Sequence record: MH494197.1
Strand: one strand, 5' to 3'
Source of the DNA: Escherichia phage CMSTMSU
DNA length: 64,000 nt
The stretch's first letter is position 1, and every line of letters starts with the position of its first letter. A program made the translations under genes and the position numbers. Under the pieces are notes generated by a model that saw only the letters and a program-made list of their open reading frames with translations, had not been told where the DNA came from and searched no databases. Positions 18,903-38,838 of this stretch are shown piece by piece.

Positions 18903-19233
18903 GGTGTATCTCGACTGGCGGGAGAACTATTCCCCGCTCTATGTAAAACATTATACGTTAATCTAACTACAATGCAAGTACTTTTAAATTTTATTTCCGA
19001 TATAGTCCGGTCTATTCTTTTCGGTCATACGCTTTGCTAATGTTTGCATATGGCTTATTGCTTGTAGTGTATCCTCTTCCGGGATGAATCGAGATAATCA
19101 GGATCATTCTTCACCTTGCAATGATTATGATAGCGTAGTACTGCCAGTACTTTTTAACTTCTTCTACTGTCATAATAAGTACCCACTTCGTTAGCTTTCA
19201 GGTTAGTATCAATCATCAGTGGATTTTTGTAGT

Positions 19234-19440
19234 TCACAAAACGAGTAGTTTTCTCGATAGCGAATCCCATATAATCCAGCTTACTAACAGTACATTCATT
19301 CTTAAAACTTCTTTCGCTGCATCGATGGCTGATTGCATGGATAACCGACCATCTAAATTAATGTTTCCAAATGATCCACCAGCAGAAGTAGGATTACCGT
19401 TCATATCTTTAATGATCATAGTAGCGGAGTAGCTGGACAT
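19234..19440 (-). CDS. hypothetical protein (C-terminus probably frame-disrupted)
   Basis: Starts right after cassette at about 19455-19530. Confidence 0.4.
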   Translation of the reverse strand: MSSYSATMIIKDMNGNPTSAGGSFGNINLDGRLSMQSAIDAAKEVLRMNVLLVSWIIWDSLSRKLLVL

Positions 19441-19454
19441 AATTTTGTTTCCTT

Positions 19455-19530
19455 TTATTGGTGTGGGAGAACTATTCTCCCTTGATGTAAACTATTATAC
19501 AGTACTGATATACTTTGTCAAATACTTTTA
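19455..19530 (-). promoter_or_regulatory. promoter + stem-loop cassette (copy)
   Basis: ttgacaaagtatatcagtactgtataatagtttacatcaaGGGAGAAtagTTCTCCC on the minus strand. Confidence 0.55.
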
Positions 19531-19621
19531 TTCGCCCATATAGATTAGATTATCATCGCCTACATAGGATCGCAAACGTTGATTTCTTCGCAGTACTTCG
19601 TGAATACATCGCCATAGTGAC

Positions 19622-19858
19622 CTAAACCACGATCCCAAAACCAGTTCCGTGACCTTCGCGGGTAAGGAACAGATCATGACCAGCTTGCTCATAACCGTAA
19701 TCAATAAACATACCGCGAACTACTTCCAGATCATTACCGTGTTTCTCAATGAAGCGAGAACATGCAATCACTGCCGCTTGATGGGCTTGCTCTGATAATT
19801 CATAATCTTCCGTAATCGCCGTTCTCATTGTGTACAGTACTGAATTGCATAGCTTCAA
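19622..19858 (-). CDS. hypothetical protein (fragment of a longer frame-disrupted gene, about 19560..19935)
   Basis: An upstream ATG with MSTTTNLARN… and a downstream extension …GFWDRGLGHYGD lie in other frames. Confidence 0.45.
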   Translation of the reverse strand: MKLCNSVLYTMRTAITEDYELSEQAHQAAVIACSRFIEKHGNDLEVVRGMFIDYGYEQAGHDLFLTREGHGTGFGIVV

Positions 19859-20339
19859 TGTAAGCTACAACCATTGCAGCATGATTTTTATCGTTAGTGA
19901 TGTTCCGAGCGAGATTAGTAGTAGTAGACATGATTTTATTCCTTTTAGTATCGGGGAGAACTATTCTCCCTTGATGTAAACTATTATACAGTACTAATAT
20001 ACTTTGTCAATACTTAATTACGTTTAAAATGATATGTGCCTTTATCATCCTGTACGCCCCATACTGATTTACCATCAACACCAGTGAAGCCGGATTGTAA
20101 TTCAATATGGAAACCATTATTATCAACTACAAAAACTTTTTATTTTCATCCCGATAACATTGATATTCTGAATCAACATTAAAGGCCGCATCATTCAGAA
20201 GATTAGAAGCGTAAATGCAAGTCATTGTAGTCATGATTTTATTCCTTATTGCCGTGGAACCGTTCCTCTCGATATAAAACATTATACTTGATTCTAAGTA
20301 TAATGCAAGTACTTTTTAAAATAGTTTTCAGTACTGAAT

Positions 20340-20440
20340 ACTTATATAATAGATACACTTCCGCACCCTATGGGTCAGTGAGTTATCTCTCAATGGATAT
20401 ATATAGCAAAGGACTGACCGAGTCAATCCCTTTTTAATCT
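20340..20440. repeat. ~90-bp repeated intergenic element (core GCACCCTATGGG…ending in hairpin + T-run)
   Basis: Near-identical copies at about 17642-17730, 23585-23665, 28068-28165; partial copies at 25866, 34322 and inverted at 32715. Confidence 0.55.
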
Positions 20441-20507
20441 TTTTATCGTGTTACCTTACTTGCTGCCACATCACGCTTTTTATAGTACTGATTCCAGATA
20501 TTGCTGG

Positions 20508-20825
20508 TTAAACCGTAATCAAGTACTTTAATAAGTCCATTACGATCCCGCCGATATTCTGTTTTCTGATATCTCTTATCGTTAGTGTTGATAATGTATC
20601 ATCGACGTGTTGTAGTGCATCAGCAAAGCGGTGCTGGCGTTCAATGGCATTACGTTTAATATTGTACTTTAATTCATTGCACGCGTTTACGTGCTTTACA
20701 CTGCCTTTACTTGCAGTACTCAACCGATCCATAACGATAAACATATTATCAGGATCGCATAAATGCATATGCACCTTTGCAAAGTACTGTTTCAACTGAG
20801 GGCGGTCATAGTCTAAAAATTCCAT
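20508..20825 (-). CDS. hypothetical protein (105 aa)
   Basis: Track ORF, minus-strand block. Confidence 0.5.
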   Translation of the reverse strand: MEFLDYDRPQLKQYFAKVHMHLCDPDNMFIVMDRLSTASKGSVKHVNACNELKYNIKRNAIERQHRFADALQHVDDTLSTLTIRDIRKQNIGGIVMDLLKYLITV

Positions 20826-20891
20826 ACCTTACATTCAGTTTCATTTTGTTCGACACCCGCATCACAATTCGCGACCTTAATCACTAACCGA

Positions 20892-21080
20892 TCATTTAAA
20901 GCGAAAACTATACGGGAAGATCCGCCCGATGATCTCCAGTCCAGCTAACCGACAAGCTGAAAGGATCTCTTTGTTGGTTTCCATTTCTGACAGTGTACGG
21001 ATGAATTTAGTATAATTACGCATTGCATGTTCTCCTTGAGTTAATGAAACTATATTACAGTACTTTACTATCAATGGCAA
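20892..21080 (-). CDS. hypothetical protein
   Basis: Track ORF. Confidence 0.4.
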   Translation of the reverse strand: MPLIVKYCNIVSLTQGEHAMRNYTKFIRTLSEMETNKEILSACRLAGLEIIGRIFPYSFRFK

Positions 21081-21296
21081 CTACTTTTTAACATTAACGG
21101 CGTGAATCACTTCCTTAGTGTTTTTAGTACTGAATACTTTCGCCGCTCCTTGTTCGACCGTGATACGATAGCGACCATTAACATCAACCATATTAATAAA
21201 GTCCGGCGTGCTGAATGGTGTTGTTTTGCATTTGAGTACTGTTAACAGTTCCACCAGCGATGTAGTTTCTTTGATACGTTTTTCTAAAGTAATCAT
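21081..21296 (-). CDS. hypothetical protein (71 aa)
   Basis: Track ORF, tightly abutting the neighbouring gene. Confidence 0.5.
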   Translation of the reverse strand: MITLEKRIKETTSLVELLTVLKCKTTPFSTPDFINMVDVNGRYRITVEQGAAKVFSTKNTKEVIHAVNVKK

Positions 21297-21434
21297 TTTG
21301 TTTCTCCCCGTGTTGGTATGTACATATAGTACTAAAACATTTGAGTACTGTCAATTAGATAATATTATATTTCTTAAAATAAAATGCGTCTTGTGTTGGT
21401 TGATACTCGATACCGTTACCGTTATTGACTTCAA

Positions 21435-21629
21435 CTAATAAACCTTTGTCAATAAGTTTTTAATAGTACGATACCCTTGTTGAAAATTGGTAAAATGTGA
21501 ATCATTACGAAAGGTATAACCGTGCTTAACTGCTTCATCAATAGTTTTCTTTTCGATTTTAGATAATTTCATTTTGTTTCTCCCGTGTTGGTATATGTAC
21601 ATAGTACTAAAACATTTGAGTACTGTCAA
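21435..21629 (-). CDS. hypothetical protein
   Basis: Track ORF; the likely start is the internal MKLSKIEKK. Confidence 0.4.
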   Translation of the reverse strand: MTVLKCFSTMYIYQHGRNKMKLSKIEKKTIDEAVKHGYTFRNDSHFTNFQQGYRTIKNLLTKVY

Positions 21630-22423
21630 CGTGATATTAGTTTTATTTTCTTATTGTATTGTTGATGCTCATAAAGGTTTATCTTTCCTGTGTTCTCGAT
21701 TACTATCCTGTTGTTAGTGTCCACATCGATTACACGCAGTTTCCGTTGCTTAACTTCCGGGTAATAGGTTACCATTAATAAACTCATTAGCAAGCTGTAC
21801 GGCCTTTGTGATGATTCTCTTCGGTGCTTTATAGTGTACCCGTAAGATGTTATCTTTATATAGTTGAACCTTAATCATTTTGTTTGTCCTATAAAAAGGC
21901 GGGAACTGATCCCGCCGTGTTGTTAGTACTGCAAGTTATTAGATAACCGGCGGCGTTTACTGTATACTGTTACACGATTACCCTTACGGTCGTGTCGGAT
22001 CTCTTTCTGGTTGCGAATCAGTTCACTTGGACGCTTAAGGTTTGCCGTGATCCGCGTGAGTCCATGCATTGGCATTTACCTGTACTTTGATATCAGAACC
22101 AGCGATAAACTCATCTTGTGCGTCAGTATTGCCGCCAGCATATCCGCTCGTTTTAGTTCTGCTGCTGTTAGTACTGGCTCAGGTGAATTCACAATATCAG
22201 AGATCTTTGAACTGTACGGCCCAGCGTTGGCCTTTCGGTGCATCTTTGCCCATGTCTTTAAATGCTGCTCCTTCCTCGCGTGCAACAATACGGGCAGCTT
22301 CACGGGTAGCGTAGAATTTAGTAATCATGGTATACATCCTATTAGTTAAGTTAGTACTACAAGTTAGAGTCTATTATAAAGTACTATCTGGGCAATGTCA
22401 AATAGTACTTTAAATGGATTCTA

Positions 22424-22624
22424 TTACATGTCTTTCTTACGTTTTACATCGTGGTAGCGAACTGTTATTTCTTTGTTGATCTCTTCCTCGATGCGGTGAA
22501 TAACTTTTTCTTTCGGGTTGAAACCTATAACGGTTTCTTTAATGATCTCAAGCCCGTGTATTCGCCTTGTGTACCGTAACCGTATGTAAAGGTTTCGTGT
22601 CCCGTGTCTTCCAGCGGTCGCCAA
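22424..22624 (-). CDS. C-terminal fragment of the preceding gene
   Basis: Overlapping same-strand ORF in a different frame. Confidence 0.35.
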   Translation of the reverse strand: MATAGRHGTRNLYIRLRYTRRIHGLEIIKETVIGFNPKEKVIHRIEEEINKEITVRYHDVKRKKDM

Positions 22625-22745
22625 TTAACGCAGACACGTAGCAAGAGTGGTAAGTATTGCCGTGTGAATCAGTCCACCGATTAACGTTAATGTCAAAGGA
22701 GGTTACAATTTTCAATTCTACTTTCTGGGCAAGGATCATAGCCAT
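22548..22745 (-). CDS. hypothetical protein with RWTDSHGNTYHSC motif (frame-disrupted; continues in 22424..22624)
   Basis: Motif shared with the gene at about 29.7-30.0 kb; starts after cassette 22765-22826. Confidence 0.4.
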   Translation of the reverse strand: MAMILAQKVELKIVTSFDINVNRWTDSHGNTYHSCYVSALIGDRWKTRDTKPLHTVTVHKANTRA

Positions 22746-22764
22746 TTTATTTCTCTCTTTTAGT

Positions 22765-22826
22765 TAGGAGGAACCATTCCCTCACTTGATGTAAACTATT
22801 ATACAGTACTAAGATACTTTGTCAAT
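22765..22826 (-). promoter_or_regulatory. sigma70-type promoter (TTGACA-N16-TATAAT) plus 5' stem-loop cassette
   Basis: Minus strand: TTGACA 22820-22825, TATAAT 22798-22803, then inverted repeat GGAGGAACC/GGTTCCTCC before the ATG. Confidence 0.6.
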
Positions 22827-22843
22827 ACTTATTTTTGGAAAGT

Positions 22844-23008
22844 TTACGCATTAATTCTACGCTTTCTTGTGAACGTTTTGCTACCGGCAAGCTGCATGGG
22901 TAGTAAACATTTTGTATAGTCTGACGCTTTGCCACCGAACCGAGCGGCACGTTCACGGGCACTTGGAACTAATACTATTTCTTTCTTGCAGATAGTGCAC
23001 TTAGCCAT
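22844..23008 (-). CDS. hypothetical small protein (54 aa, MAKCTICKKE…)
   Basis: Hand-translated; below the track cut-off; ATG directly after a promoter cassette. Confidence 0.4.
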   Translation of the reverse strand: MAKCTICKKEIVLVPSARERAARFGGKASDYTKCLLPMQLAGSKTFTRKRRINA

Positions 23009-23666
23009 TTTATTTCTCTCTCTTTGTTAGAGGGGAACCGTTTCCTCACTCGATGTAAACTATTATACAGTACTAAGATACTTTGTCAATACTTAATTAT
23101 TGTAAATGTCGTGAATAGTGATAAAGTTTTTACGACCGTAAACCTGCAAATCAATATCAATGTAGTGCTTATCTAGTACATCCTCGACGCTTAACGCGGT
23201 GTCGTGGATATCTTCGTAGAATTGAGTATCTACAATCTTGCTTAAGTCATCCGGCGTTAACTCATCGTTAAGCAGTTGAACCGCCGGATATCTGCTTCAC
23301 GTTTCCAGTCTTCCAGTTAGTAGTCAGTACTTGTTCGATTTCGTTAGCTGTCAGTAGAATCCGCATTTTTATGTTTCCTTATCAGTGGTTGATGTAAGTA
23401 TTATACTCGTTTACTTTCTATTGTCAAACTATTTTATCAGGGAGTTTTTCGTATGTCTTACTCGACTACTTAACGGGGTTACTTGTTTCGTTCCCCGTCC
23501 TGATGTAAAACATTATACTTGATTCTAAGTACAATGCAAGTACTTTTTAAAAATAGTTTTCAGTACTAGCCACCAGCAAACAATAGATACATTTATGCAC
23601 CCTGTGGGCTGATTTGTTTCTATGCGTATATAATAGCAAAGGACTGAATCCCTTATTCAATTATTT

Positions 23667-23816
23667 TTAAACTTCTTTCGGGTTGCGATAGGTGATAGCG
23701 TTCGGGTACATTTGTTTAATGTTATTCCATGCCCGGTTGACATTGTAACCACTTGATCGAATCAGTTGGTTACTACCGACACCTTGAAACACTACTTCGA
23801 ATAAGAATTCTTTCAT
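23667..23816 (-). CDS. hypothetical small protein (49 aa)
   Basis: Hand-translated; SD GAGGTGA 6 nt upstream of ATG. Confidence 0.45.
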   Translation of the reverse strand: MKEFLFEVVFQGVGSNQLIRSSGYNVNRAWNNIKQMYPNAITYRNPKEV

Positions 23817-24351
23817 GCTTTCACCTCGCGATCTGCTTTACCTTTACGCCGACATTACTAATTGTTCGCGTTGCCATAAGTCGAGTGATACAAAAGTTTT
23901 GCGGTATCACTTTTAGGATACTCGCCATTAGTACCTAACCGATAAAACAGATCTTTCAGTACTGATAATTCTACTTGGATCATTATACTTTCTCTTTGTT
24001 GGGAGGGAACTATTCTTCCGATATAAAACATTATACACTTTATTCAGTACAAGTACTTTTAATCTTTCAGCCAATGATCCTGAATGAATTTTTCACCGGA
24101 ACCTTGCTGCATTGATTGTAACAGACGTTCACGATGAGCGGCGGCGAATTGCTCAGTACTATGCGTTACACCGGTTGATATCTGGATTCACCATTGGGGC
24201 TGATGTATTGTACATCCCACGGTTTTTCGTTAGTATCAGACCATTTACGAACGATTAGTTGACCTTGCATTTTTCTTTCTCTTAGTGGGGAGAATCATTT
24301 CTCCCCTTCATGTAACTTATTATACAGTACTAGATTATCTTGTCAATAGTT

Positions 24352-24636
24352 TTATTCACCTTGTTTGAATTTAGTTTTCTCCATTGATTCCATGATTGCA
24401 ACCAATACGCCGTGGATCTCGCTTAACGCGGAATCACTAAAAGCATTAATGAATAGTCGATCATTCTCGCGAATATTTTTAATGTACTTTTCAGCAGTAG
24501 TTGCGAATTCATTCAACGGTAGATCAAATGCTTTATCCCATGATGGATGGCGTAATTGTAACAGTACTGGATTATCACGATCACGGGAAAACGTACCAGT
24601 GATGAAACATACGCCCGAATACTTTCGAACTGGCAA
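24352..24636 (-). CDS. hypothetical protein (94 aa)
   Basis: Track ORF. Confidence 0.45.
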   Translation of the reverse strand: MPVRKYSGVCFITGTFSRDRDNPVLLQLRHPSWDKAFDLPLNEFATTAEKYIKNIRENDRLFINAFSDSALSEIHGVLVAIMESMEKTKFKQGE

Positions 24637-24994
24637 CGGACTTCCTTTGTGATAGTAGTATGAATGTACATTTATTGTTATCCTCTATTAAATTAATATT
24701 ACAGTTTATGAATCAATTCTTTATCTAAGCGATAGCGTACATTATTAATAGTAACGGCATTGTTTTAATGCTACGCTGTACAGGTCCACCAGCAATAACA
24801 AATGTTGCTTTATTACCCCGAACAATGATAGCACTTCCGTGATTACCGAAATCATCTTGTACTAAAATACTTGATAAGTTTTCCATTTTATTTCTCTTAG
24901 TAGGGAAGATGTTTCCTTGATGTAAGTACTATAACAGTACTGAAAACTAATTGCAAGTACTATGATAAAATCATGATAGGATATTCACTATCGA

Positions 24995-25279
24995 TCAGTA
25001 CCTCGAATCCGAACCCTTCGTACCATTCTTTAAGATTAAAGGCGTTATCTTCTCCGTATCGCATTCTAAGATGATACAATCTGAATCATCAGCGGCATCG
25101 ATAAAGGCATTCATTAATTCGTTACCTTCACCATTGCCCCGACTATCAGGATCAACATAAAGAGAATCAATGAAAGCAACACGGTCATAATCAAGATCCG
25201 GTGCAATGATTCCACGTTTAACAAACCAGTACTGCAATTGTGCTACTTTGCTGTACCTGATAACCAGTGATCTCGCCAT
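24995..25279 (-). CDS. GNAT-family N-acetyltransferase, central fragment (full frame-disrupted gene about 24971..25313)
   Basis: VAFIDSLYVDPDSRGNGEGNELMNAF resembles the GNAT acetyl-CoA-binding motif A; …LKEWYEGFGFEV continues in another frame. Confidence 0.55.
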   Translation of the reverse strand: MARSLVIRYSKVAQLQYWFVKRGIIAPDLDYDRVAFIDSLYVDPDSRGNGEGNELMNAFIDAADDSDCIILECDTEKITPLILKNGTKGSDSRY

Positions 25280-25462
25280 TGTCAGTAGTACGCGTGATAT
25301 GTTGTATTCCCATGATTTCTATCCTCAGTTAAGATATAAAACATTATACACTATCTTTCAGTACTGTCAATTACTTTTATCTCATAGATCTATGCCAACA
25401 ATTACGCGGATCTCTTTAAAAGTACTATCATGATCCTCCGGCAAGTAATACAATACATGCAC

Positions 25463-25630
25463 CTATAACGGCCCGGCGTCGATTCTCAGGGATTTTACCG
25501 CCGCAGTCGAGGCAATGTACAGTGATTCTCTTTGTGCGTTAATTTGCTTTCTAGCGTGGTTAACGGCGGCCTGAATCACTGCGTTAATCTCGTCTTGTTC
25601 GGCCCCGTCTTTCGCGAATCCTACAGCCAT
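25463..25630 (-). CDS. hypothetical small protein (55 aa)
   Basis: Hand-translated; MAVGFAKDGAEQDEINAVIQAAVNHARKQINAQRESLYIASTAAVKSLRIDAGPL. Confidence 0.4.
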   Translation of the reverse strand: MAVGFAKDGAEQDEINAVIQAAVNHARKQINAQRESLYIASTAAVKSLRIDAGPL

Positions 25631-25962
25631 TATTTTAACCTCATTATAAAAATACTATAGTACTGTAATGCTACAATAATACTACTAGTGCTAATCTTAT
25701 TCAAACCACATGATACTACATATCCACCAGCATTACCACGGATAGTAACGCCTTTGTACTGTCTATATAAATTCAACTGCGTATATTGCCTTTGATCAAG
25801 AATTGATCAGAATTATACGCCTTATGCTAAATTGATCCAGTACTTTTGATCATTTATTGATCGATGTTATATAGTTACATTTGTGCACCCTATGGGTTAG
25901 TGACGTTCTCGTCTTGATGTAAGTATTATGCCAGTACTGGAGGATATTGTCAATAGATTATT

Positions 25963-26160
25963 TTAATTTTTTCTATCATTAATTAATGCTTTCAGTACTA
26001 TACTAATAACTTGCAATGATTCATCAATGACAATGAAATTATTCTCTTTCATTAGATGATAGTTACCATTGATTGTATATTCTAACGAGTACTGTTTACG
26101 TTTAATTTTTGATAATGTTTCTATTTGTTTTTGTACTGATTTCATGCTAATCATTGTCAA
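25963..26160 (-). CDS. hypothetical protein
   Basis: Track ORF. Confidence 0.4.
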   Translation of the reverse strand: MTMISMKSVQKQIETLSKIKRKQYSLEYTINGNYHLMKENNFIVIDESLQVISIVLKALINDRKN

Positions 26161-26258
26161 ACGTCCTGTAACGCATTCTAACGAGATAAACGGTTGAGTA
26201 CTGGCATTGTATAGGGTAATGATTAAAGCCCACCAGCGTTAACCAGTGGGCTATAATC

Positions 26259-26402
26259 TTACATCTTGCGGATAATCTTAACAGTATCTTTCACCGATTT
26301 ACCGTTTTGCTGACATTGCTCGATCATCGCGTATTGTTCTGCGGTCAGATCCTCGCCAGTTTTTGCCAGTACTGCGTCGATGAATGAATCCAGTGCGATC
26401 AT
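26259..26402 (-). CDS. hypothetical small protein (47 aa)
   Basis: Hand-translated; followed by hairpin AGCCCAC…GTGGGCT. Confidence 0.4.
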   Translation of the reverse strand: MIALDSFIDAVLAKTGEDLTAEQYAMIEQCQQNGKSVKDTVKIIRKM

Positions 26403-28067
26403 TTTGTTTCTCTCTTAGGTTAAGTTAACTACTGTTTATAAAACTTATTATACAGTACTATCAAACTATGTCAATAGTACTGGTAATATATTTTAGCGGT
26501 AGTCGTCGTATGCTTTATTCACGGCGAATATAACTTTCAAAGGCTTCGTCTACCGTTTCATACTCCCGAACATAATCACCATATGAAACTACATACATAC
26601 CTTTTGATCTTCAAACGTCATGATGATAGAATCCAGACCAACGATTTCAGTTTTTGCGATGATAGCCATTTTTAATTCCTTAGTAGTGTAGTTGATAAAA
26701 GTTATTATGTCAGTACTATCAAACTATGTCAATAGTACTGTGATAATATTTTAGTTAATGATAGTCAGTGTAAAATTGTAATCCCCTGCCCGTATAGTAC
26801 TTTATCGCCGAACGTTCCAACACGTTTCATATTGCAATAGATACCCATAACACTTTTACATCTTTGATATTCCGAACGCCAGTAATATCCTTGTTTAAAT
26901 GATCGTGATCAGAAAATAAAACTTGTTTTGCATTTTTCAGTACAGTGCAGATATTAGCCATTTTGTTTTCTCTTCTGTTAGTGGGGAGAAGTTTTTCTCC
27001 CTTGATGTAAACTATTATACAGTACTATAATCTATTGTCAAACTATTTTTTATATTATTCGAAATCTTCTGGACCGGACTGATAATCATCTTCACCGTAT
27101 GCACTTTCTAACCGCTCGCCAGTGCAATCATCAGTTAGTGAGTCATCCTCATAGTTCACGTCTACGCCAGTGATGTAAAACTGGCTATCGTCTGGATCAT
27201 TGAAATTAATTTTCTGGATGTTTACAATAACTGTATTGATGCCGTGACACCGCCATCAGCCGTTACAAAGTACTGATATTTTTCACAACCGCCTGAATTG
27301 AAACCGTAATTAATTTCGGCCCGACCATCACTTAAACGCAGTGTCTGAGCGATGATTTCATTTTCAAAGTTAGATTGAGCAATTGCAATAGTCATGATTT
27401 GTTTCTTATTATCAGGGAAACCGTTTCCCTTTCGATGTAAAACATTATACGCTTATCAGGAAGTAATGCAAGTACTATTTCACGTTAATTTCAAAGTACT
27501 GCTCTTTGATGTTTTCCTGTTGGTAAATCTCGTTTAATGCTTTAAGATCTAAAACCTGTTTACCTGCTGCCTGAATATACTTTTAAGAGTCGCTAACAGC
27601 TTCTCAGGCGTGTTTGTAGTCTTACGTGTTGGGATCTTATCGTGCCCCATAGCGTAGTACTGCTTACGTGCTATAGTACTGATAACACTGCGGTACGGTT
27701 CCATGATCAGCTTGTCTGTATTCGTCGCTATCCCCAAACTTCATACCGTGGATCGCAAAGGTCATCATCATGCGGTCGTTATCGCGGATATTGTGGGGCA
27801 GTCGGCAAGCTCGCGAGTCAGTGACATAGTGATCCCCACGTCGCCACCCAGCGGTAAAGGTCGGGCGATAAAGAAACCGTTAGGGAATACTTTCAGGAAG
27901 TTTTCTTGAACTGCTGCGACGAATTCGATGCTATTCATAATTCATTTCCTTAATTAGTGGGGAAGTTGTTTCCTCTTGATGTAAAACATTATACGCCTAT
28001 TGAGATAGTTTGCAAGTACTTTCTACAAATACTTTTAAAATAGTTTTCAGTACTCAATACTCATATA

Positions 28068-28165
28068 ATAGATACACTTATGCACCCTGTGGGCTAGTGA
28101 GCTATCTCTCAATGAATATATAATAGCAAAATGGCTGACCGAGTCAACCACTTTTTCATTTATTT
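28068..28165. repeat. ~90-bp repeated intergenic element (copy)
   Basis: atagatacacttatgcaccctgtgggctagtgagctatctctcaatgaatatataatagcaaaatggctgaccgagtcaacc. Confidence 0.55.
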
Positions 28166-28271
28166 TAGCTTTTAGAATCGCCGCCTTTCGCGTCATGCCT
28201 TGCTTGATGTATTCTGTACTTTCGCTTTACGTGCATTCGCTTTATTTGCTTTCGTAAACGCCGAACAACTT

Positions 28272-28529
28272 TTATAGTTTAAACCTGTTGGATTCATTTA
28301 AATCACCATAAAGAATAGATAGGTTACTAACAACGCCGCGATCAATGCACCGACCGAACTGTAATAAGCTAATGATCTCATTTTTAGCCTGAAAATAATG
28401 TTTAATTTGAGCGGCGGTCAGTGCACAATTACGCAGGAAGTTTTCTGTATAACTTTTGCGAGTACTGAAAGAGAATTGACCTTTGCTGCTGCCGATAGTA
28501 ACATCAAACCGAGCGTTGTATTGTTTCAT
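28272..28529 (-). CDS. hypothetical protein (85 aa, start MKQYNARF)
   Basis: Track ORF trimmed to the ATG that follows the promoter cassette (ggagaaacaaaATG). Confidence 0.45.
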   Translation of the reverse strand: MKQYNARFDVTIGSSKGQFSFSTRKSYTENFLRNCALTAAQIKHYFQAKNEIISLLQFGRCIDRGVVSNLSILYGDLNESNRFKL

Positions 28530-28544
28530 TTTGTTTCTCCTGTT

Positions 28545-28625
28545 ATTGGGGAGAATCATTTCTCCCTTCATGTAAAACATTATACAGTACTAAAACTAAT
28601 TGCAAGTACTATTTTTAGATTTACG
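28545..28625 (-). promoter_or_regulatory. promoter + stem-loop cassette (copy)
   Basis: …ttgcaattagttttagtactgtataatgttttacatgaaGGGAGAAatgaTTCTCCCC… followed by ATG 28529. Confidence 0.55.
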
Positions 28626-29691
28626 CAAACTTTCTACCATCTCAGGAGTAAGGTCTGCGGGTAGGAAACTACTTCATCAACGAAACGTAAAGGAATACCC
28701 CAGCGAAAGGTGAACGTGCTTTCTTAGTATTACTCTTTTTGATGCTTTCATTTCATATTCTTAATTAGTGGGGAGAATCATTTCTCCCTTCATGTAAAAC
28801 ATTATACGCGTTTAAAACTAATTGCAAGTACTATTTGAAAGTAAATGCTCATACGCTACATTAACTACGTTTTCAATAACCGACTGTACAGAAAGATCCC
28901 CACTTCCGGCTATAGTAGAAATCGCTTACAGTAGTGTCATCGTATGCAAATACTTTACCGTGACTGCATCAATCACATACATATTAACCTTTAAGATGTC
29001 GATCTTATCCTGTACAGTAAGCATATTAATTAACCTTTTAAGTACTGACTTAAGTAATCTTGTTGATCTTCGGTGATTGCAGCCATCTTCCCTAGTACTG
29101 GATTAATGATATAATCCCTGTAACGTCCTGTAACGCATTCTCAGGCGGTTTAACGGCTGGGGTAGCCATAGCCATTGCCGACTTGTTCGACGCTGTAACG
29201 CTCATAAAGGCGGCATTCTTCCGGTGTTAACATAGCATCAATGCGTTTCATTGGTTTAATGATGCTTTCGATCTCATTCAGTACTTGATTAACGTTCATG
29301 GTATAATCCCAATATAAGCGGCCTAAATCGACCGCTAACGATGTTTTGATTAATAGGTGTATGGTTGACGTTCAAACAATGATTGCACGTTGTACGCCCC
29401 GCTTATGGGCTTTGCTGGTAAATCAATTTTATATTGTTCACGCTTAAAGATAATAAAACGGCAATTGTTTTAACATCAAAATTGATTGAACGTTCCGAGT
29501 TTACCATCGTGCACAAATACAAGATAACCGCTCGCTACTTGTTTTGTAGTACTGGTTGCAACCATAGACCGCCGAACATGTGTACCTGCGTCGATTAAAG
29601 TACTGATATTTTTCATTTTACTATCCTCTTAAGTTGATTTAATTTCTTTCCCTATGCAGACACTGTACCAAAGTATCTGCATAAAGTAAAG

Positions 29692-29973
29692 CTAATTAAA
29701 GATCTTTTTACGTTTTACATCCTGTACAGTACAATGCAACGGGATAGACAAATCATTGCACAAACGATAGAGGGAGGTTTCATCAGTATTAAGCCCGTCT
29801 ACTGATTCCTTTAAGAGAGATAACGCCGTTTGTTGGTATGCATCTTCATAGCCATAAGTAAATGATTCAACCGCCAGATCATTCAAGCCGTTATCCAGTT
29901 CGACGCTTACATGACAAGAATGATGTATTGCCATATGAATCAGACCAACGTTTACCGTCAACATTGATTGCAC
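29692..29973 (-). CDS. hypothetical protein (fragment; paralog of 22548..22745)
   Basis: An upstream frame encodes …VDGKRWSDSYGNTS…, the same motif as the 22.6-kb gene. Confidence 0.4.
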   Translation of the reverse strand: MQSMLTVNVGLIHMAIHHSCHVSVELDNGLNDLAVESFTYGYEDAYQQTALSLLKESVDGLNTDETSLYRLCNDLSIPLHCTVQDVKRKKIFN

Positions 29974-30338
29974 GGATTGCAGCCGAAACGGTGTTAATGA
30001 TAGTTTTAGCCATTTTAGTATTCCTTAAATTAATATGTGTCGTCTTGATAAAATCTATTATGCCAGTACTATCAAACTATGTCAATAGTACTGTGATAAT
30101 ATTTTTACTTACTTTTTGCTTTCTTTATTGCTTCCACCGGTCGGCCCATTCTTTACCCCATACTTGTAAATTATAATGGTACTGGCAAAGTGCAACGCCC
30201 CGCTTTAAACCAGTAATAGATTTTTACCACATTGACAAGTTTTCATTTTAGTTTCCTTGTAGTGGGAGAACCATTTTCCCCTTGATGTAATGTATTATAC
30301 TTTATTCGATTTACTTTGCAAGTACTTTTTAATTTAAT

Positions 30339-30551
30339 TCATCCGTAAAGGATACGCTCAACGCCCAAATCAGTTAAACTAATCGACGGCACTTGATAGG
30401 TTTCAATGTATGCTACACTTGCCCACTGACCGAACTCATTAACGGCCGTATTCATTGCATTTTGCAATTCCACACCTTCCTTGTTGGTAATGACTGCAAC
30501 TACTTGTTCGTTGCCAGTAGTACCAGATACGCGAGTAATGATAATAGCCAT
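30339..30551 (-). CDS. hypothetical protein (70 aa)
   Basis: Track ORF directly downstream of a promoter cassette. Confidence 0.5.
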   Translation of the reverse strand: MAIIITRVSGTTGNEQVVAVITNKEGVELQNAMNTAVNEFGQWASVAYIETYQVPSISLTDLGVERILYG

Positions 30552-30619
30552 TTTTTAATTCCTATTCAGTAGTTGATGTATGTATTATGCCAGTACTTAA
30601 AACTATTGTCAAACTATTT

Positions 30620-30772
30620 TTAAAGTTTATCAATGATTGATGCCGTTTCATTGATAGTCTTGCCGTGTTTTGCACACGCGATAACTGCTTTAAATTCCTT
30701 TGATGACCAATCTTTCTTACTGCATACTGACATTACTTGTAAAGTAAAACAATCCAGTTCATAAGTATTCAT
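30620..30772 (-). CDS. hypothetical small protein (50 aa)
   Basis: Hand-translated; MNTYELDCFTLQVMSVCSKKDW…. Confidence 0.4.
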   Translation of the reverse strand: MNTYELDCFTLQVMSVCSKKDWSSKEFKAVIACAKHGKTINETASIIDKL

Positions 30773-30985
30773 CTTTATATCCTCAGTTAGTTAAGGTGTC
30801 TGCCTTGATGTAATTAATTATACGCTAATCTCTTAATCGTGCAAGTACTTTTATTACTTTTTGCAAAATACTTTAAACGCTCTCAATCGCATTACAACGA
30901 CCTTAACGCCACCAGCTAGGCAATGCATCAGATAATCAGTTTAAAGCGTTAGAATCGTTTCTAGGCGGTGCTGGTGGCGTAAACG

Positions 30986-31015
30986 ATAAAAAAAGCCCAC
31001 CGTTTAAGGTGGGCT
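30986..31015 (-). terminator. rho-independent terminator (minus strand)
   Basis: Minus-strand AGCCCACCttaaacGGTGGGCT followed by TTTTTTTAT; 13 nt after the stop of 31028..31261. Confidence 0.6.
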
Positions 31016-31027
31016 AGTGATTCAGTT

Positions 31028-31261
31028 TTATGCTTCAACTTTGCGATGAGCTTCGATCCATTCCTCGCGAGTCATACCACTGGAGTTAATCGCGTCCAGT
31101 ACTACCGCAATGCAGTTACCACGCACCGGAATCAGATATTCTTCCCGTTGTACTACCGCTACGCGTTCCTGAATCCATTTTTGGCTTTTACTTCTGGCTT
31201 GTCTTCCCATACTTAACCGCCGTGGCTTTTGTGCCATCTCTGTAACTACTTCCAGATCCAA
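31028..31261 (-). CDS. C-terminal part of the preceding gene
   Basis: Overlapping frame; ends 13 nt before terminator hairpin. Confidence 0.4.
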   Translation of the reverse strand: MDLEVVTEMAQKPRRLSMGRQARSKSQKWIQERVAVVQREEYLIPVRGNCIAVVLDAINSSGMTREEWIEAHRKVEA

Positions 31262-31406
31262 CTACTGCCGCCTGAATACTTTCGATTGTTGCTTGTAGTT
31301 CTGCTTCACGGGCCGCCTTTGCCGCTTCAATTTCTGCCGCTTTATTTGCTTGTAGTTCTTTCGCAGTACTGTAAGCGATGTTAAAATTATTGCGTACCGC
31401 TTTCAT
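31188..31406 (-). CDS. hypothetical protein, Ala/Glu-rich N-part (frame-disrupted; continues in 31028..31261)
   Basis: Overlapping same-strand ORFs; gene followed by a terminator. Confidence 0.4.
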   Translation of the reverse strand: MKAVRNNFNIAYSTAKELQANKAAEIEAAKAAREAELQATIESIQAAVVGSGSSYRDGTKATAVKYGKTSQK

Positions 31407-31691
31407 GGTATCGTTATCCAGTTCAGCCGGATCTCAGCCGCGACGTTAGTTTCATTTGCACCAGTGCTTTGATGAATGATTTTACATTAGCCATTTTATA
31501 AATCCTCAATTAAAGTTTAGTTTACGTTTATTAGTGTATCAAAGTTTTCTGACGTGTCCAGTTTTTCGTTCGACTTACTGGCGGTCTACTTAGTGCTCCC
31601 CGTCTTGATGTAATACATTCTACGCCTTTTTGCGGTAATGTCAACTACTTTCTTAAAACTATTTTCAAAGTATCTCAGTACTACGATACTA

Positions 31692-31717
31692 CAAAACAAA
31701 AAGCCCACCCGTGGGCT
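31692..31717 (-). terminator. rho-independent terminator (minus strand)
   Basis: Minus-strand AGCCCAC-GGGTGGGCT hairpin followed by TTTTTGTTTT. Confidence 0.5.
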
Positions 31718-31979
31718 GTATTAATCAGTAAGTAAAATATTAAACACTTTACCATTTAACGTTATTGGTGCACTGCTACCGTGCTCAAGATCCGTTAGTA
31801 TACCTGCAATCGCTTTATCATTGGCGACCTTTCCAGTGTCCAACAGTACGACAGTACTGATAAGATTAACGCTCGTTTCAATATCATAATGCACGGCGTT
31901 AAGGAGTTGTGTATACTGCTTTCGTTAAGTAAAACTATTCGTGCTGTCATGATGTACCCGTAGTATCTATCAACGGCAA

Positions 31980-32267
31980 TTAATAACGCCGGAATGCGTT
32001 ACTTTCAGTATCCATAACAGTGACCGAACCGCGTTTAGTACTTGCATCGTAATAAATTGTCGTGCTACCTTTTTCGTCTTCTTCATGGAACGGCCCGTTT
32101 TTAAATGCTTCTGGCTGGATCTCTAAATCCTTTAAAACAATCTCGCCAGTACTTTCATTGGTCATCGCTACAGTGCACTGAATGAATTTTTCACTACTTA
32201 CATCTAACGACGCATTAACAGCGAAAGAGGAAACAGATAAAGCCGTGGCGATGATTGCAATTTTCAT
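31980..32267 (-). CDS. small secreted/periplasmic protein with N-terminal signal peptide
   Basis: MKIAIIATALSVSSFAVNA-SLD: hydrophobic core plus AxA cleavage-like site. Confidence 0.55.
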   Translation of the reverse strand: MKIAIIATALSVSSFAVNASLDVSSEKFIQCTVAMTNESTGEIVLKDLEIQPEAFKNGPFHEEDEKGSTTIYYDASTKRGSVTVMDTESNAFRRY

Positions 32268-32677
32268 TTGATTATCCTTAGTTACGGGAACCGCTCTTGC
32301 GATGTAAAATATTATACAGTACTAAAAACTATTATCAAGTACTTTATGATTTTTATAAAACATTTCAGCAGTGATATTTTACCCGTTGGCTGTACTTTAT
32401 CCAGAATTTTTGATGTCCGGCCGTCCAAATGAATATGATCCGTAAACCGTAAACCAGTAGTTACCCTCAGTGTTTACATGTACAGCATAATAGGGAACGC
32501 CCGCGATTCATCACTAGTAAAGTGTGCTACCGTTCCGTTACATTCGCAGACGTTGATTTGATTTGTTCAAGCATTTTATTATTCCTTAGTTACCGTGGGA
32601 ACTGCTCCTATGCAAAACATTATACGCGTTTAAAACTAATTGCAAGTATTTTAATAAAAGTATTTGAAAAATAGTTG

Positions 32678-32706
32678 TTGACAAGTGCATCCAGTACTGG
32701 CATAAT
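32678..32706 (+). promoter_or_regulatory. plus-strand consensus promoter (TTGACA-N17-CATAAT)
   Basis: TTGACA 32678-32683, CATAAT 32701-32706; faces a terminator about 100 nt downstream. Confidence 0.4.
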
Positions 32707-32712
32707 TACTAC

Positions 32713-32815
32713 ATCAAGACGAAACAGTCACTAACCCACCGGGTGCATAGATCCGTCTATTAAATGATTCAGTACTGAAAAGTAACGGGAGTTATTATCT
32801 CCCCGTTGTTATTTT
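32713..32815 (+). ncRNA. candidate small RNA (promoter to terminator, about 100 nt)
   Basis: No ORF; ends with hairpin AACGGGAG-ttattat-CTCCCCGTT + T-run; contains the repeated GCACCCxxTGGG element in inverted orientation. Confidence 0.25.
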
Positions 32816-33029
32816 GTGGTATAAACAGAAGTCGCCTTTATTTGCTACGCCGCCAGTGTAACGCGAGGAATAGTCACCCGACTTCTGCTATTACCAGTGT
32901 ATCATCATTCAATTCGCGCAAACGGCTGGATCTTGTACGCCGATTTTGTCGGCATGTTCCCGCATAGATTTAACCAGTGCTTCCAGTTGGGAAAGAGTAG
33001 TGATATTAGCCATTGTATTTTCTCATTAC

Positions 33030-33100
33030 CGTGGAGAACCATTTCTCCCTTTGATGTAAAACATTATACAGTACTGAAAACTAATTGCAAGTACTTTTTA
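33030..33100 (-). promoter_or_regulatory. promoter + stem-loop cassette (copy)
   Basis: Same conserved TATAATGTTTTACATCaa + GGGAGAA/TTCTCC module. Confidence 0.5.
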
Positions 33101-34750
33101 ATATTGTTTGTCGTCGTCTTCCTCGATGAATTGACCGACGAAATGATCTACTTTCGCTTTGAGGCTTTTATAATCTTCTTCTACTTCCTTTAAACGTTCC
33201 GTAGTATTCCAGTGCCTCAACATATGCGGCCTCAGCCGTTTTCTCACGCATAGCTAAATTCATTCCACGCGTTTCATCAAATAGCCAAAACCATCGGTGC
33301 ATTCACTGATAGACAATGATTTGTTTAACACATTGTACTTTATTACTTTACTCATTAGATAACCTCAGTAAAGGCGGGAACTATTACCCGCCTCGATGTA
33401 AAGTATTATACGCTTTTAAACTTAGTTTGCAAGTACTTTTAAATTAATATTCGATTGATTCTACTACGCCATCAATAACATTGAATTGATACTCGTTTCA
33501 ATCAGTGCCGTAATGTTTTCCAGTAGTGAATTGATCCTCATATGCATTCTCTAAATCACGGTACAACTTGCGGGACAATTCACGAATAGTGTCAGTGAGT
33601 AGTTCCTCAAGCTCATTAACTAACGTTTTTGTTTTGCGGTTAAATCCAGTGTAAGCCGATTCAATGTACCCGCTTACAGTATTCTTGAGTAGTGGGAGTG
33701 CGAACGCTTTACACTCATCGCCAAACCATCTTCATTCAGCAAGTGACGGATTGAGCGATTAGTTAATGCTTTACCTTGCGTAAAACTTCACTGCGTCAAC
33801 GTGGTCAGTACTGATTGATGCACCGTCCCCGGGACCAAAAGCCACTGAATCGTAAATCAGCGTCATTAATGCCATATTCCGGTAGTACTGTTTCAGTATT
33901 CATTTCACTTTCAGAAAAATAATCATCGTTTAAGTTTTTTCACGTTCCCGAACCAGTTCGATAGCTGACGTTTGTTGTTCTGCGTTCAATTCAGAAAAAT
34001 CCATAACGAAAGTAGTAGTAGTGATAGTTTTCATTTTGTAACCCTCATTCAGTAGTTGATGTAAGTATTATACGCTTTAAAAACGTCAAACTATTTTATC
34101 AGGGAGTTTTGTGCCTATTCCTCGGCTACTTAACGGAAGTTACTTATTTGTTCCCCGTCCTGATGTAAAACATTATACGCCTTTAAACATAGTTTGCAAG
34201 TACTTTTAAAAATAGTTTTCAGTACTGAATATTAAAAAGTATTGACAGCATTATCAGTACTAATATAATTCCCATGACAACAGCTAACCCACGGTGCAAT
34301 TGTAACTGTAATAAACTTTTTCTAGATACACTTCCGCACCCTATGGGCTACGGCTTATCTGCCAATGAATACATTATGCCAGTACTGACAAAATAAGTCA
34401 ATACCGGCAATTGTAAAGATTTGTAAACTGCTTATACTGCAATCGCGTCCGTGCTATAATAATAATAAGTGCTATGGTGTGACTTACCTTTTATTTCAGT
34501 ACTGAATGAATCCGAACGATTTGCATATGATGTTAATTTAAAGTACTTTGATTTGTTGATACGTTACACCACAGATCCGCGTAAGTAGTTTTATTAGTGG
34601 TAGTATCTTTACGGTTTTAACTTCAGTCATATACATATTAGTCATTTTTATTACTCCGAGTTATAGGGGAACTATTCCCGCTCTCGATGTAAAACATTAT
34701 ACGCTTTTAAACTTAGTTTGCAAGTACTTTTATTCAAGTACTGCAATCTT

Positions 34751-34975
34751 TTAGTACGGTACACGGTCACGCGGTTGCTTTCGGTCGAGCTTTATTTCTA
34801 CCACTCGACGCGATACACTATCAGGACTTTTCAACGCCGCTAACCAGTACTGTAATGATCTGGCTGTACTACGCTTTACAATGGCCCAACGTTTACCACG
34901 TTCCGATTGTACGCCCATATCTTTAAACGTTGCCCGTCCGGCGTGCTGCGATCCGAGCTTGTTCACGCGTCGCAA
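34751..34975 (-). CDS. hypothetical basic protein
   Basis: Track ORF. Confidence 0.4.
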   Translation of the reverse strand: MRRVNKLGSQHAGRATFKDMGVQSERGKRWAIVKRSTARSLQYWLAALKSPDSVSRRVVEIKLDRKQPRDRVPY

Positions 34976-35348
34976 AATACTTAATATTCATGTTGTTCTT
35001 ATCGTTGGTGTATGAATAAACACTATTATAAAGTACTATCATCGTGCAATAGTACTTTAAATCTATTCTATTACATTCCAACCATTGCAGCACGGATCGA
35101 TAGTGCTATATTTGAATCCGTCCGGTGTTTTTCTTGTCCAGTCTGTTCTAAAAAATAACATCATATGACGGGCCGCATCATTGCGATTAGTGCTATCGTT
35201 AATAAAGTCCCAACTGGTATAATGATTCATCGTTATTAATCCAAAGGCTTACATTCCAATGAGTTTTGTTTTTGTGACCTAAGAACATTTTGATTTAGCC
35301 ATTTTTAATCTTATATAGTGGGGAACTATTTCACCCTGATGTAAAACA

Positions 35349-35576
35349 TTATACGCTTTTAAACTTAGTTTGCAACTTTATTAAACTTATTTGTAATTTT
35401 GCACTGTCAGCCCATACTGTGAAACGATGCATATTATCCCATGCATCTTGTTTTAAATTTAAACTGTGCAATTCCTCAGTAGTTGCTATCCCCATTGGCT
35501 TACTACACACCGCGAAATTTTTCTCCATGTACTGATAAACCATCGTTAAATCATTTGAGATCATTACATGGATCAT
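35349..35576 (-). CDS. hypothetical protein
   Basis: Track ORF. Confidence 0.4.
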   Translation of the reverse strand: MIHVMISNDLTMVYQYMEKNFAVCSKPMGIATTEELHSLNLKQDAWDNMHRFTVWADSAKLQISLIKLQTKFKSV

Positions 35577-36130
35577 TGAATCAGCTATGAAGTAGCGTAT
35601 TGTTCACGCACGGCAACGGTTCCCGATAAGCTGTAAATGTGAATTTTACAGTTTCAGCCGGAAGACCTTTCATTTCACGGAAGTTAACCGTGTTAAGCAT
35701 GATTTTATTGATTTGAGTCGCCATCGTTTTAATCTCTTAATGTAGCGGGAAGTGTTCCTGCCTCGATGTAAAACATTATACGCTTTTATCAGTATGCAAG
35801 TACTTTCTACAAATACTTTTAAAATAGTTTTCTCTATATAGGGAACTATTATTCAGTACTGCAACCATCCGTGGGAACTATCTTTCTATAGTAGTACTAT
35901 TATTCAGTACTGAATCAATCCACCAAATCATCCTGATACCCGTAAAACGGCCTCAGACGCATTCTAACGCATTAATACACCTAAGCTATACATTTGCACC
36001 ATTCCAATCTTGGCTGGGCCGTTTAAACGCGTTAAATTATTTTCAATTATTTTGTTTTAGCTATTGACTCAGTACTAAAAAGCGTATAATTACACATAGA
36101 CGCGAGAAAGGAAACCAGAGGGTGCGGAAT

Positions 36131-36644
36131 TACGCCCAAAATTCAAGATATAAAAAAAGGATACACCGCACCCTAGCAGGTTAACGCACTTTCTAGTACT
36201 GAAATATAGTAACATAGTCCGCTGATAGCAAGCAATTAAAACTTTTTCATCCGGTATTGCTTTATTTTTCCAGTACTGTATAATAGTTCCATCGTCGAGA
36301 AAGACTCAGCCCACCGTATAGTTACGCCCAAAATTCAGTACTGAAAATTTTAAAAATATCCGTCCGTGCGCGTTGTTCCCCCAGTTTATAAGATAATGAT
36401 TCCAGACTCCAGAACGGTTCATCCCACGCGGTAGGGGAACTATTGGAAAACAAAATAAAATTTTGATTTAGCCGTCTATACTTCCAGACGTGTAACCATC
36501 TAGCCGTTTAGCTGTCCAAACGTCAGCCATCCAGCCATCCAGAAATCTAGCCGTTTAGCCGTCCAGATGGATAGCCATTTCCAGACTTCTGAGGGCTAGA
36601 CATATCTACGTCCAAAATCCATCCGTGGTAACTACGCCCAAAAT
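36131..36644. repeat. dispersed 12-bp motif TACGCCCAAAAT (3 exact copies + 1 variant)
   Basis: Exact at 36131, 36323, 36633; variant TACGTCCAAAAT at 36607. Confidence 0.5.
36500..36566. repeat. direct repeats CTAGCCGTTTAGC(T/C)GTCCA x2
   Basis: Copies at about 36500 and 36548, with AGCCATCCAGCCATCCAG between them. Confidence 0.5.
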
Positions 36645-37380
36645 CCGTCAGTACTATACCATAGATCATCTTTGGAGTATTCAGTACTGCCATCAGCCCC
36701 TCACATGTTACCCTAGGAGGATGAAGATCACCGCGGTACTGAATACTGTTAGAGGGAATCCACCAGCTTGGTGGTATAATCGTTTAGATTAAAATCAGTA
36801 CTGACACCATTCTGTTAATATCAGTACTGTTATTGATTTTCATATGAGGTTCAAAAAGATGTACCCACCACAGGAGGAACTATCTTTTCTGTACTGTCTC
36901 ACAGGAGGTAGAGTAAATGAATCGTTCGCAACTCATCTCTATGTAGAACATTATACAGTACTGAATCATAATGTCAATAGCTTTCTTTCATTATTCAGTA
37001 CTGATATTCTTGAGAACTACCCGACTACAAACATCATTATATCCCACAAATCATAAACGTCCCAACGTAAATTTCAACTTTCGAAGATCCAACTTTATTT
37101 CATAGGTACTCCAAAATTTTAGGATCGAGATTTAGGATGGAGTACTAACCAACTTTTGCTGAGCTCTGGATATTAAGGTGAAAGTAATAATTCAGTAATT
37201 AATCATTGGTGATTACTTTTGATTACATTTGATGTAATTTGCAAAATGGAAAAGGAGCTTGAAACTAGTACGGCAGACTTCCTCTGCCTACTAGGTGCTG
37301 GTTTCATCTATCGGAGGGAAATGGATTAACCTTAGCAATACGTAACTGAATACGTTCTTGATTAAACGTGCACATTCCTG

Positions 37381-37410
37381 TACTCTATTACACTCTAGTA
37401 CACTCTAGTA
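37381..37410. repeat. tandem 10-bp direct repeats (TACTCTATTA / CACTCTAGTA x2)
   Basis: Three adjacent 10-bp units in an ORF-free region. Confidence 0.6.
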
Positions 37411-37429
37411 CTCAATACTGATCACTACA

Positions 37430-37488
37430 ATGATTATAAATGATTACTTAAATGTTTATATATGATTACTTATGACTACATATGATTA
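37430..37488. repeat. iteron array: six ATGATTA-like boxes at 10-12 bp spacing
   Basis: Boxes begin at 37430, 37440, 37452, 37462, 37472, 37482. Confidence 0.6.
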
Positions 37489-37816
37489 GGGTTTACTGGG
37501 AGAATCTAGTGATCGCATTTGTCCAGCTGAATTTTAACATATATAACATATGTTAAAGCCTGTCCAATGCTTCTGCGGAGCTTCTGTCTATATGTTGAAT
37601 TACTTCCTATATATAAGCATTAACATATAGTAGTACTGATTATGCTGTACATTCTCTTTAATATTATAAGGGTCTATAGCAATCTCGGTACATCTGTTAA
37701 ATGCATATCTATTAAATGCCAGTACTATTATAGATCTAATCCATGCTTGGTCAGTCGGTGGTAGTTTACTTATATAGTACTCTTTATAGTTTTTATGTTC
37801 TGCATAGTATACCTTA

Positions 37817-38634: not shown

Positions 38635-38651
38635 GTTAGTACCTTAGTGCT

Positions 38652-38837: not shown

Positions 38838-38838
38838 A

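Follow-up and report, generated by a model that had tools for sequence, protein, structure and literature searches.

What is the role of a 1.8-kb region that is poor in open reading frames (ORFs) and crowded with short repeats and plus-strand promoters in the genome of Escherichia phage CMSTMSU? The region (35820-37600) lies in a stretch of 64,000 nucleotides from sequence record MH494197.1 (hereafter the window), and an initial annotation had proposed it as a candidate replication origin or regulatory hub. By comparison with relatives, the window belongs to an Asteriusvirus, a RaK2-like jumbo coliphage. The region is the conserved untranslated end of a 21-kb direct terminal repeat (DTR) and straddles the right boundary of this repeat. 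It comprises the final 1.47 kb of the DTR and the first 300 bp of unique DNA, and the physical end of the virion DNA falls inside it, between 37292 and 37293. It is an uncharacterised DTR end with its cis-acting terminal region, an element of a known kind, and it probably combines a site for concatemer cutting and DTR processing with an early-transcription leader. The genome end, which is also the DTR boundary, and 58 nt of sequencing adapter next to it had both been missed in the initial annotation.

The limits of the repeat were obtained from relatives with determined ends. In the linear record of G17, positions 1-20668 are 100% identical to the last 20668 bp, so both ends of the virion DNA carry the sequence up to 37292, and the limits of this repeat project onto window positions 16257 and 37292. 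The records of fEgEco12 and vB_Ec-M-J open with 26 nt, AGTAGGCAGAGGAAGTCTGCCGTACT, that are the DTR end of the window read inward, and their repeats stop at the homologue of 16257. The termini of these three relatives lie at the identical homologous nucleotide and are not permuted. Therefore, we place the DTR of the window at 16257-37292, with the other cut between 16256 and 16257. The termini of fEgEco12 were determined with PhageTerm and confirmed by restriction digests, the DTR is annotated in the vB_Ec-M-J record, the terminal redundancy of G17 was seen as sequence coverage, and PhageTerm gave a DTR of 20,668 bp for Sharanji. The same two terminal nucleotides, a repeat of ~21 kb and a gene-free leader are thus common to G17, Sharanji, fEgEco12 and vB_Ec-M-J. 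Both ends being fixed, the locus does not behave as a headful pac site with permuted ends of the P1, P22 or SPP1 type. The DTR carries ~60 small minus-strand genes behind consensus early promoters. Long DTRs are already known in the RaK2-like clade (CBB, XacN1 and others), and reports on Asteriusvirus termini state no more than how long the repeat is and where it lies. In the papers on fEgEco12, Sharanji and phAPEC6, a term search turned up nothing on promoters, non-coding regions or skew.

The record of CMSTMSU itself bears a trace of the same end. Directly after 37292 stands a stretch made up, in order, of AGGTGCTG, GTTTCATCTATCGGAGGGAAATGGA (barcode 11 with one extra A), TTAACCTT and AGCAATACGTAACTGAA, which is the reverse complement of an Oxford Nanopore native-barcode adapter. 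When 37100-37600 was used in a sensitive search, 28-60 nt of it matched the very ends of records from unrelated phages of Enterobacter, Pseudomonas, Yersinia and Staphylococcus. The stretch occurs once in the window and in none of the relatives aligned, all of which read on as TTAGTGGGATATCGACACCTTCAGTACTGAATACTTTTGGGGCAGTACTGC; about 50 native nucleotides at the DNA end have been replaced by it. The barcode BC11 sequence is listed in PMC9575581. Since the adapter was ligated directly after 37292, the DNA molecules of this phage ended there, at the nucleotide found in the relatives.

The adapter is one of several defects of the record. The 2-kb region is 82-89% identical to its counterparts in ~40 Asteriusvirus genomes of 350-380 kb. 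The window contains no CCWGG site and 28 homopolymers of at least 6 nt, versus 92 and 97, respectively, in the homologous 64 kb of ECO103 4-12-1, and its indels coincide with CCAGG sites of relatives. The window is an unpolished, error-rich nanopore assembly with miscalled Dcm sites and compressed homopolymers. Base-calling errors at Dcm sites account for many broken ORFs, and the homologue of G17_00053 is split into 35349-35576 and 35581-35724. Because of these errors, we took fine details from the relatives. Near 37157, ~36 nt present in all relatives, including a hairpin GGGGTAA...TTACCCC, are missing from the window, owing to either a real deletion or an assembly error. A tRNA scan and an Rfam scan of the window gave no matches. 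The record needs polishing before annotation, because the adapter and the systematic errors at Dcm sites and homopolymers break many small ORFs.

We next consider conservation, expressed as mean pairwise identity among ten relatives. Identity is 0.89-0.98 across the leader (35950-37290) versus 0.85-0.92 in adjacent genes. Just outside the end (37300-37450) it falls to 0.44-0.63 and then reaches 0.98 over 37450-37499, where the right four of six phased ATGNTTA boxes lie. The Asteriusvirus relatives have a ~1.9-kb gene-free gap between small minus-strand genes at this locus, and curated records leave it unannotated. The 1.35 kb inside the end is non-coding and more conserved than the neighbouring genes. 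In this respect the proposals of an ORF-poor region and of a regulatory hub were borne out, and the promoters described below are conserved even in another genus.

To identify promoters, we built a position weight matrix (PWM) from the phage's own DTR promoters. It replaced a generic sigma-70 scan, which was uninformative (9 sites versus 9.3 in shuffled sequences). The early-promoter family has the consensus GTATTGACAAAGTATATCAGTACTGTATAATAGTTTACATCAAGGGGAG, and the PWM found four sites in the leader versus 0.13 in shuffles. Both plus-strand promoters of the initial annotation, M1 and M2, proved to be members of this family; the 15-nt spacer reported for M1 is particular to the window and is 16 nt in relatives. 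M1 and M2 are paralogous units. A third outward site, TTGACA-17-GATAAT, is intact only in relatives, and all three outward promoters point toward the DNA end. On the other strand, the consensus promoter closest to the end scores 32.4 bits and is the sole site in the G17 leader above a threshold of 18 bits; the promoter of the first DTR gene is shortened in the window by base-calling errors. Early sigma-70-type promoters of the phage's own family thus face both ways in the leader. Recognisable homologues of two outward promoters, M1 among them, are present in the leader of fENko-Kae01, a phage of a different genus-level cluster from fEgEco12 with an average nucleotide identity of ~29% (their Table 2, PMC13070987).

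The sequence immediately around the cut contains several further elements, whose coordinates are collected in Table 1 together with those of the leader. The DTR closes with an imperfect terminal hairpin of 26 bases, whose stem runs to the terminal base (DNA fold, -8.7 kcal/mol; z, -4.3). In fENko-Kae01, an unrelated hairpin begins at the first base (z, -2.9), and end B has none. A 42-nt element, present in one copy in the genome, is ~93% identical in fENko-Kae01, Munch, 7t3, XbC2 (Mimasvirus), EJP2 and four jumbo-phage contigs of IMG/VR, in each case at a distance of 70-190 nt from the terminus, or its homologue, on the inner side. Two of six IMG/VR matches to the first pattern drawn up for this element were discarded as chance occurrences inside coding sequence. 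In UE-S1 and A4, both TAGGAT repeats of the element are altered together to TACGAT, a joint change that fits the expectation for paired protein-binding half-sites.

Read away from the repeat, the outside flank opens with TAGY at all four cut sites, that is, two ends in each of two lineages: ACT-TAGTGG, CCT-TAGCGA, ATA-TAGCGG and CCT-TAGCCA, with the hyphen at the cut. The cut context in other lineages is AGATA-TAG(C/T)GG. The left-end context CCT-TAGC is common to Asteriusvirus and fENko-Kae01. The left boundary (16220-16310) has no hairpin and carries CATAGTCCAA 36-45 nt inside the repeat. An AGGT seemingly common to both cut sites was dropped, because the right-hand AGGT turned out to be adapter.

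TGATTA boxes sit on both sides of the cut. Counted on either strand, TGATTA reaches its maximum in the window near the end, with 8 copies per 350 nt (Poisson P ~1.7e-8). The block inside the end shows ~93% pairwise conservation across the ten relatives and is nearly invariant in four relatives aligned beside the window. Outside the end, the six ATGNTTA boxes are spaced by 10, 12, 10, 10 and 10 nt and the right four are conserved. Between the cut and these boxes lies a 10-bp tandem array with three units in the window versus two in BF17; other lineages have other 10-bp units in the same place (GGATAGTACT x12, CCGTAGCTTA x3.5 and GAAGAGTACT x3). An AT-rich palindrome at 37543-37568, TTTAACATAT-N5-ATATGTTAAA, corresponds to TTAACAATT-N5-AATTGTTAA in fEgEco12 and ECO103; both arms have changed, so the dyad has been maintained.

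Table 1. Features of the DTR end and its leader, in window coordinates
Feature	Position	Strand	Description
Direct terminal repeat (DTR)	16257..37292		21,036 bp; single collapsed copy in the assembly
Promoter of first DTR gene (G17_00053 homologue)	35775..35805	-	PWM 24.7 bits at the homologous G17 site
Promoter M1, outward, early-type	36064..36090	+	TTGACT-N15/16-TATAAT; TTACGCCCAAAATTCA at ~+33
Repeat (T/C)TACG(C/T)CCAAAAT(T/C)C (TACGCCCAAAAT motif)	36130, 36322, 36606, 36632 (36130..36647)	+	Four copies in the same orientation
Promoter M2, outward, early-type	36258..36285	+	TTGCTT-N16-TATAAT; CAGTACTG in spacer; second TTACGCCCAAAATTCA at ~+33
TCCAGA / TAGCCGTTTAGCCGTC / CAGCCATC repeat block	36400..36600	+	
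GC hairpin CCACCAGC-N4-GCTGGTGG	36760..36775		Garbled in the window; terminator in G17 annotation
14-bp hairpin CAGTACTG...CAGTACTG followed by AUUUUAAUCU (U-tract)	36796..36829	-	Candidate terminator; ~150-nt leader transcript
Inward consensus promoter	36950..36977	-	TTGACA-N16-TATAAT, 12/12; 315 bp from DNA end
Terminus-proximal 42-nt element	37105..37146		GGTACTCCA, two TAGGAT repeats 13 bp apart, TGGAGTACT
TGATTA-type boxes inside the end	37199..37243		TAATCAT, TGATTAC x2 (37210, 37220), TGATGTAAT
Terminal inverted repeat	37267..37292		AGTAC-GGCAGA-cttcc-TCTGCC-TACT; final base is the final DTR base
Adapter (artefact)	37293..37350		58 bases; Oxford Nanopore native-barcode adapter, reverse complement
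10-bp tandem array outside the end	37382..37411		ACTCTAGTAC x3 (3.0 copies); strain-variable
Six phased ATGNTTA boxes outside the end	37430..37488	+	Starts at 37430, 37440, 37452, 37462, 37472, 37482

The repeats listed in the initial annotation are all present and commoner than expected by chance. They are mostly conserved, the exceptions being the 10-bp array and the two leftmost ATGNTTA boxes. TTACGCCCAAAATTCA is exact at 36130 and 36322, with variants at 36606 and 36632; the "CCGTGG-like" bases said to precede the copies are CCAGGG, miscalled at Dcm sites, as comparison with relatives reveals. Repeats of the TACGCCCAAAAT type are kept in relatives. The sequence TAGCCGTTTAGC(T/C)GTCCA (also written TAGCCGTTTAGCYGTCCA) occurs at 36500 and 36547 with CAGCCATC x2.4 in between, and the exact 12-mer and 16-mer of the leader repeats are found nowhere else in a 352-kb relative.

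Two hairpins lie between these repeats and the inward consensus promoter. In some strains the loop of the GC hairpin reads ACAA, whereas other strains have the complement, TTGT, a switch that indicates loop inversion within a perfect inverted repeat. The 14-bp hairpin has one compensatory pair, in A4, and the leader RNA may be structured. An 8-bp stem formed by GGGTGCGG and CCGCACCC downstream of M1 was rejected, since fEgEco12 and A4 alter one arm only.

The motif in the spacer of M2 is widespread. In 16257-64000, the palindrome CAGTACTG has 53 copies versus 0.7 expected and AGTACT has 257 versus 21.5, and this excess starts abruptly at the left DTR boundary. The CAGTACTG motif is found between the -35 and -10 of early promoters, and most copies lie outside strong promoters. 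The leaders of fENko-Kae01 and XbC2 are likewise enriched in it, and the 10-bp arrays outside their ends consist of it. Farther into the unique DNA, at 43000-58000 on the plus strand, several paralogous ORFs of 370-390 aa have homologues that carry the database names "regulator of chromosome condensation" or "DNA condensation protein" in relatives.

How might this end work? Together, the 200 bp to either side of the cut would form a cis-acting site at which the packaging machinery recognises replicated concatemers. It would cut them at a fixed nucleotide and regenerate the repeat in the manner of T7- and T5-type DTR phages, not by headful packaging from a pac site. The predicted parts of such a site are the 42-nt element with its TAGGAT repeats, the TGATTA/ATGATTA boxes that flank the cut, the terminal hairpin, TAGY and the 10-bp arrays. 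The inner kilobase would act as an early-transcription leader. Its consensus promoter near the end would fire inward, probably giving a short RNA that terminates after ~150 nt. A second promoter facing inward would drive the first DTR gene, and two to three conserved promoters would fire outward, toward the end.

The concatemer junction of phages T7 and T3 offers a parallel. These phages have fixed ends, short repeats that flank the terminal repeat, and an inverted repeat capable of forming a hairpin by the junction. Promoters read toward the junction, and strong host-type early promoters stand a few hundred bp from one end. The locus studied here resembles them in its fixed ends, terminal hairpin, flanking short repeats, junction-directed promoters and early promoter near the end; specifically, a hairpin abuts the boundary and short-repeat arrays flank it. 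It differs in that the T7 repeat is 160 bp versus 21 kb here, and in that the phage's own RNA polymerase acts at the T7 junction. The pac site of phage P1 reportedly has TGATCA/G hexamer boxes on both sides of the cleavage point, and the TGATTA boxes on both sides of the cut are similar in arrangement. However, P1 packages by the headful mechanism with permuted ends and its boxes contain Dam sites, whereas the ends here are fixed and the boxes lack GATC.

Several points weigh against this model of a processing site with a leader. The letters of the window are error-rich, and the fine details depend on relatives. The TAGY motif has only 3.5 specified bases, and the two lineages that share it are related. 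The 10-bp array and the two leftmost ATGNTTA boxes are not conserved among relatives, so that a sequence-specific role for them is doubtful. Evidence for RNA structure is thin, with 2 of 55 pairs compensatory, and the outward promoters have no assigned function. Any link between the end elements and the terminase is putative.

We compared this model with the alternatives. The region might be a replication origin, either of the iteron type, or of the T4 type with a promoter and an AT-rich unwinding element for an R-loop primer, or as a DTR end from which recombination-dependent forks start. The region is conserved, non-coding and repeat-rich, AT-rich stretches follow the outward promoters, and RaK2-like phages have T4-like core genes; in T4, chromosome ends prime replication. 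Moreover, the cumulative G-C minimum of the window lies at 37112, and in a complete relative the genome-wide minimum is found 230 bp away from the homologous end. However, GC skew tracks the coding strand genome-wide. In a gene-wise regression the coding-strand coefficient was 0.109, whereas a replichore term with the origin at this site was 0.006-0.009 and reduced the residual sum of squares by 0.1-0.8%; the weak best-fit origin was ~150 kb away. The minimum at this site thus vanishes as origin evidence once the coding strand is accounted for, in both the whole-genome and the gene-wise analysis. The local flip in skew is caused by a minus-strand tandem array at 38000-42700 of ~16 paralogous genes of ~60 aa (MHKEYY...LLLIYRY), whose coding strand is C-rich (GC skew ~-0.2), the reverse of what holds elsewhere in the genome. 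The switch in strand composition can accordingly not be ascribed to replication. A genome end may thus coincide with a minimum of cumulative GC skew for reasons that have nothing to do with replication.

Other hallmarks of an origin were likewise lacking. No DnaA box with up to one mismatch was found. Instead of at least three copies of a 17-22-bp unit at regular tandem spacing, each repeat family has 2-4 members, spaced by 192, 284, 26 or 47 nt, and the phased units are 7-10 bp, so the proposal of initiator-type iterons is not supported. No replication or initiator gene is annotated within ~6 kb in three relatives, where the neighbours are listed as small hypothetical proteins only and no domain search of the products was made. 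With the skew explained by the coding strand, no DnaA boxes, irregular repeats and no annotated replication gene nearby, the candidate origin of the initial annotation is unsupported and we regard it as decidedly unlikely. The DTR ends may take part in recombination-dependent replication, as in T4.

The closest architectural analogue is Repeat Region 3 of phage T5. This region is 1.2 kb, untranslated and rich in direct and inverted repeats. It closes the long terminal repeat on its inner side and runs on for ~270 bp into unique DNA, and its conservation exceeds that of the ORFs of the repeat. The locus here is also an untranslated, conserved block of repeats and palindromes at the inner DTR end that overruns into unique DNA, with a run of short tandem repeats near the boundary and conservation above that of the DTR genes. 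On this analogy, the DTR might enter the host first and express its ~60 early genes while the repeat block halts transfer until early proteins act, as in the two-step entry of T5. The block here (1.5 kb + 0.3 kb) is more conserved than its neighbours, and the DTR is dense with small genes that follow consensus host-type promoters. However, the paired DnaA boxes in inverted repeats that define the T5 region were not found, there is no sequence similarity to T5, and the genome is 3x larger with a DTR 2x longer. All DTR genes point away from the block, so a T7-like first entry of this end fits equally well. Halted entry of the T5 kind is unlikely.

Small unannotated genes would offer another reason for the conservation and the plus-strand promoters: a 99-aa plus-strand ORF, the only recurrent one (annotated as g614 in fEgEco12), and peptides of 19-27 aa behind AGGAGG. 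An ORF of 59-121 aa starts from the same GTG in nine of the ten relatives, just downstream of M1 and with the TACGCCCAAAAT repeats in frame, and the strong Shine-Dalgarno-like ACAGGAGG occurs twice near 36870-36910. However, the variable sites of the 99-aa ORF are spread over the three codon positions as 24/18/19, without a coding signature, and stops or frameshifts interrupt it in five of the ten relatives (A4, UE-S1, PBECO4, SD-15 and ECO103). The peptide ORFs are not conserved, being truncated in UE-S1 and A4, and curated records annotate nothing in the region. We rejected these ORFs as coding, and an explanation by small proteins is very improbable. Finally, the embedded adapter and the systematic base-calling errors through the window might suggest that faulty assembly of the DNA end produced the entire feature. 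All other elements stand at homologous positions in independent Illumina-based relatives, which refutes this idea except for 37293-37350 and small indels and makes it scarcely credible for the feature as a whole.

Processing of the DTR at this end, coupled with an early-transcription leader, hence remains our preferred explanation. The analysis fixes the start and end point of a 350-kb phage chromosome, and a few conserved cis elements emerge as candidates for roles in terminase binding, end formation and early transcription. To our knowledge, hardly any packaging signals of jumbo phages have been characterised; such signals are important both to phage engineering and to the interpretation of metagenomic assemblies. 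More tentatively, several RaK2-like genera may share an undescribed "end module" that serves as the terminase site. Its components may be the 42-nt dyad element with two TAGGAT half-sites, the terminal hairpin, TAGY at both boundaries and the helically phased arrays outside the end. The 21-kb repeat might then be a host-takeover cassette that enters first in the style of T5 and T7, and its ends might seed recombination-dependent replication. If this is true, a conserved, promoter-rich and untranslated kilobase would lead the 21-kb first-entering cassette.

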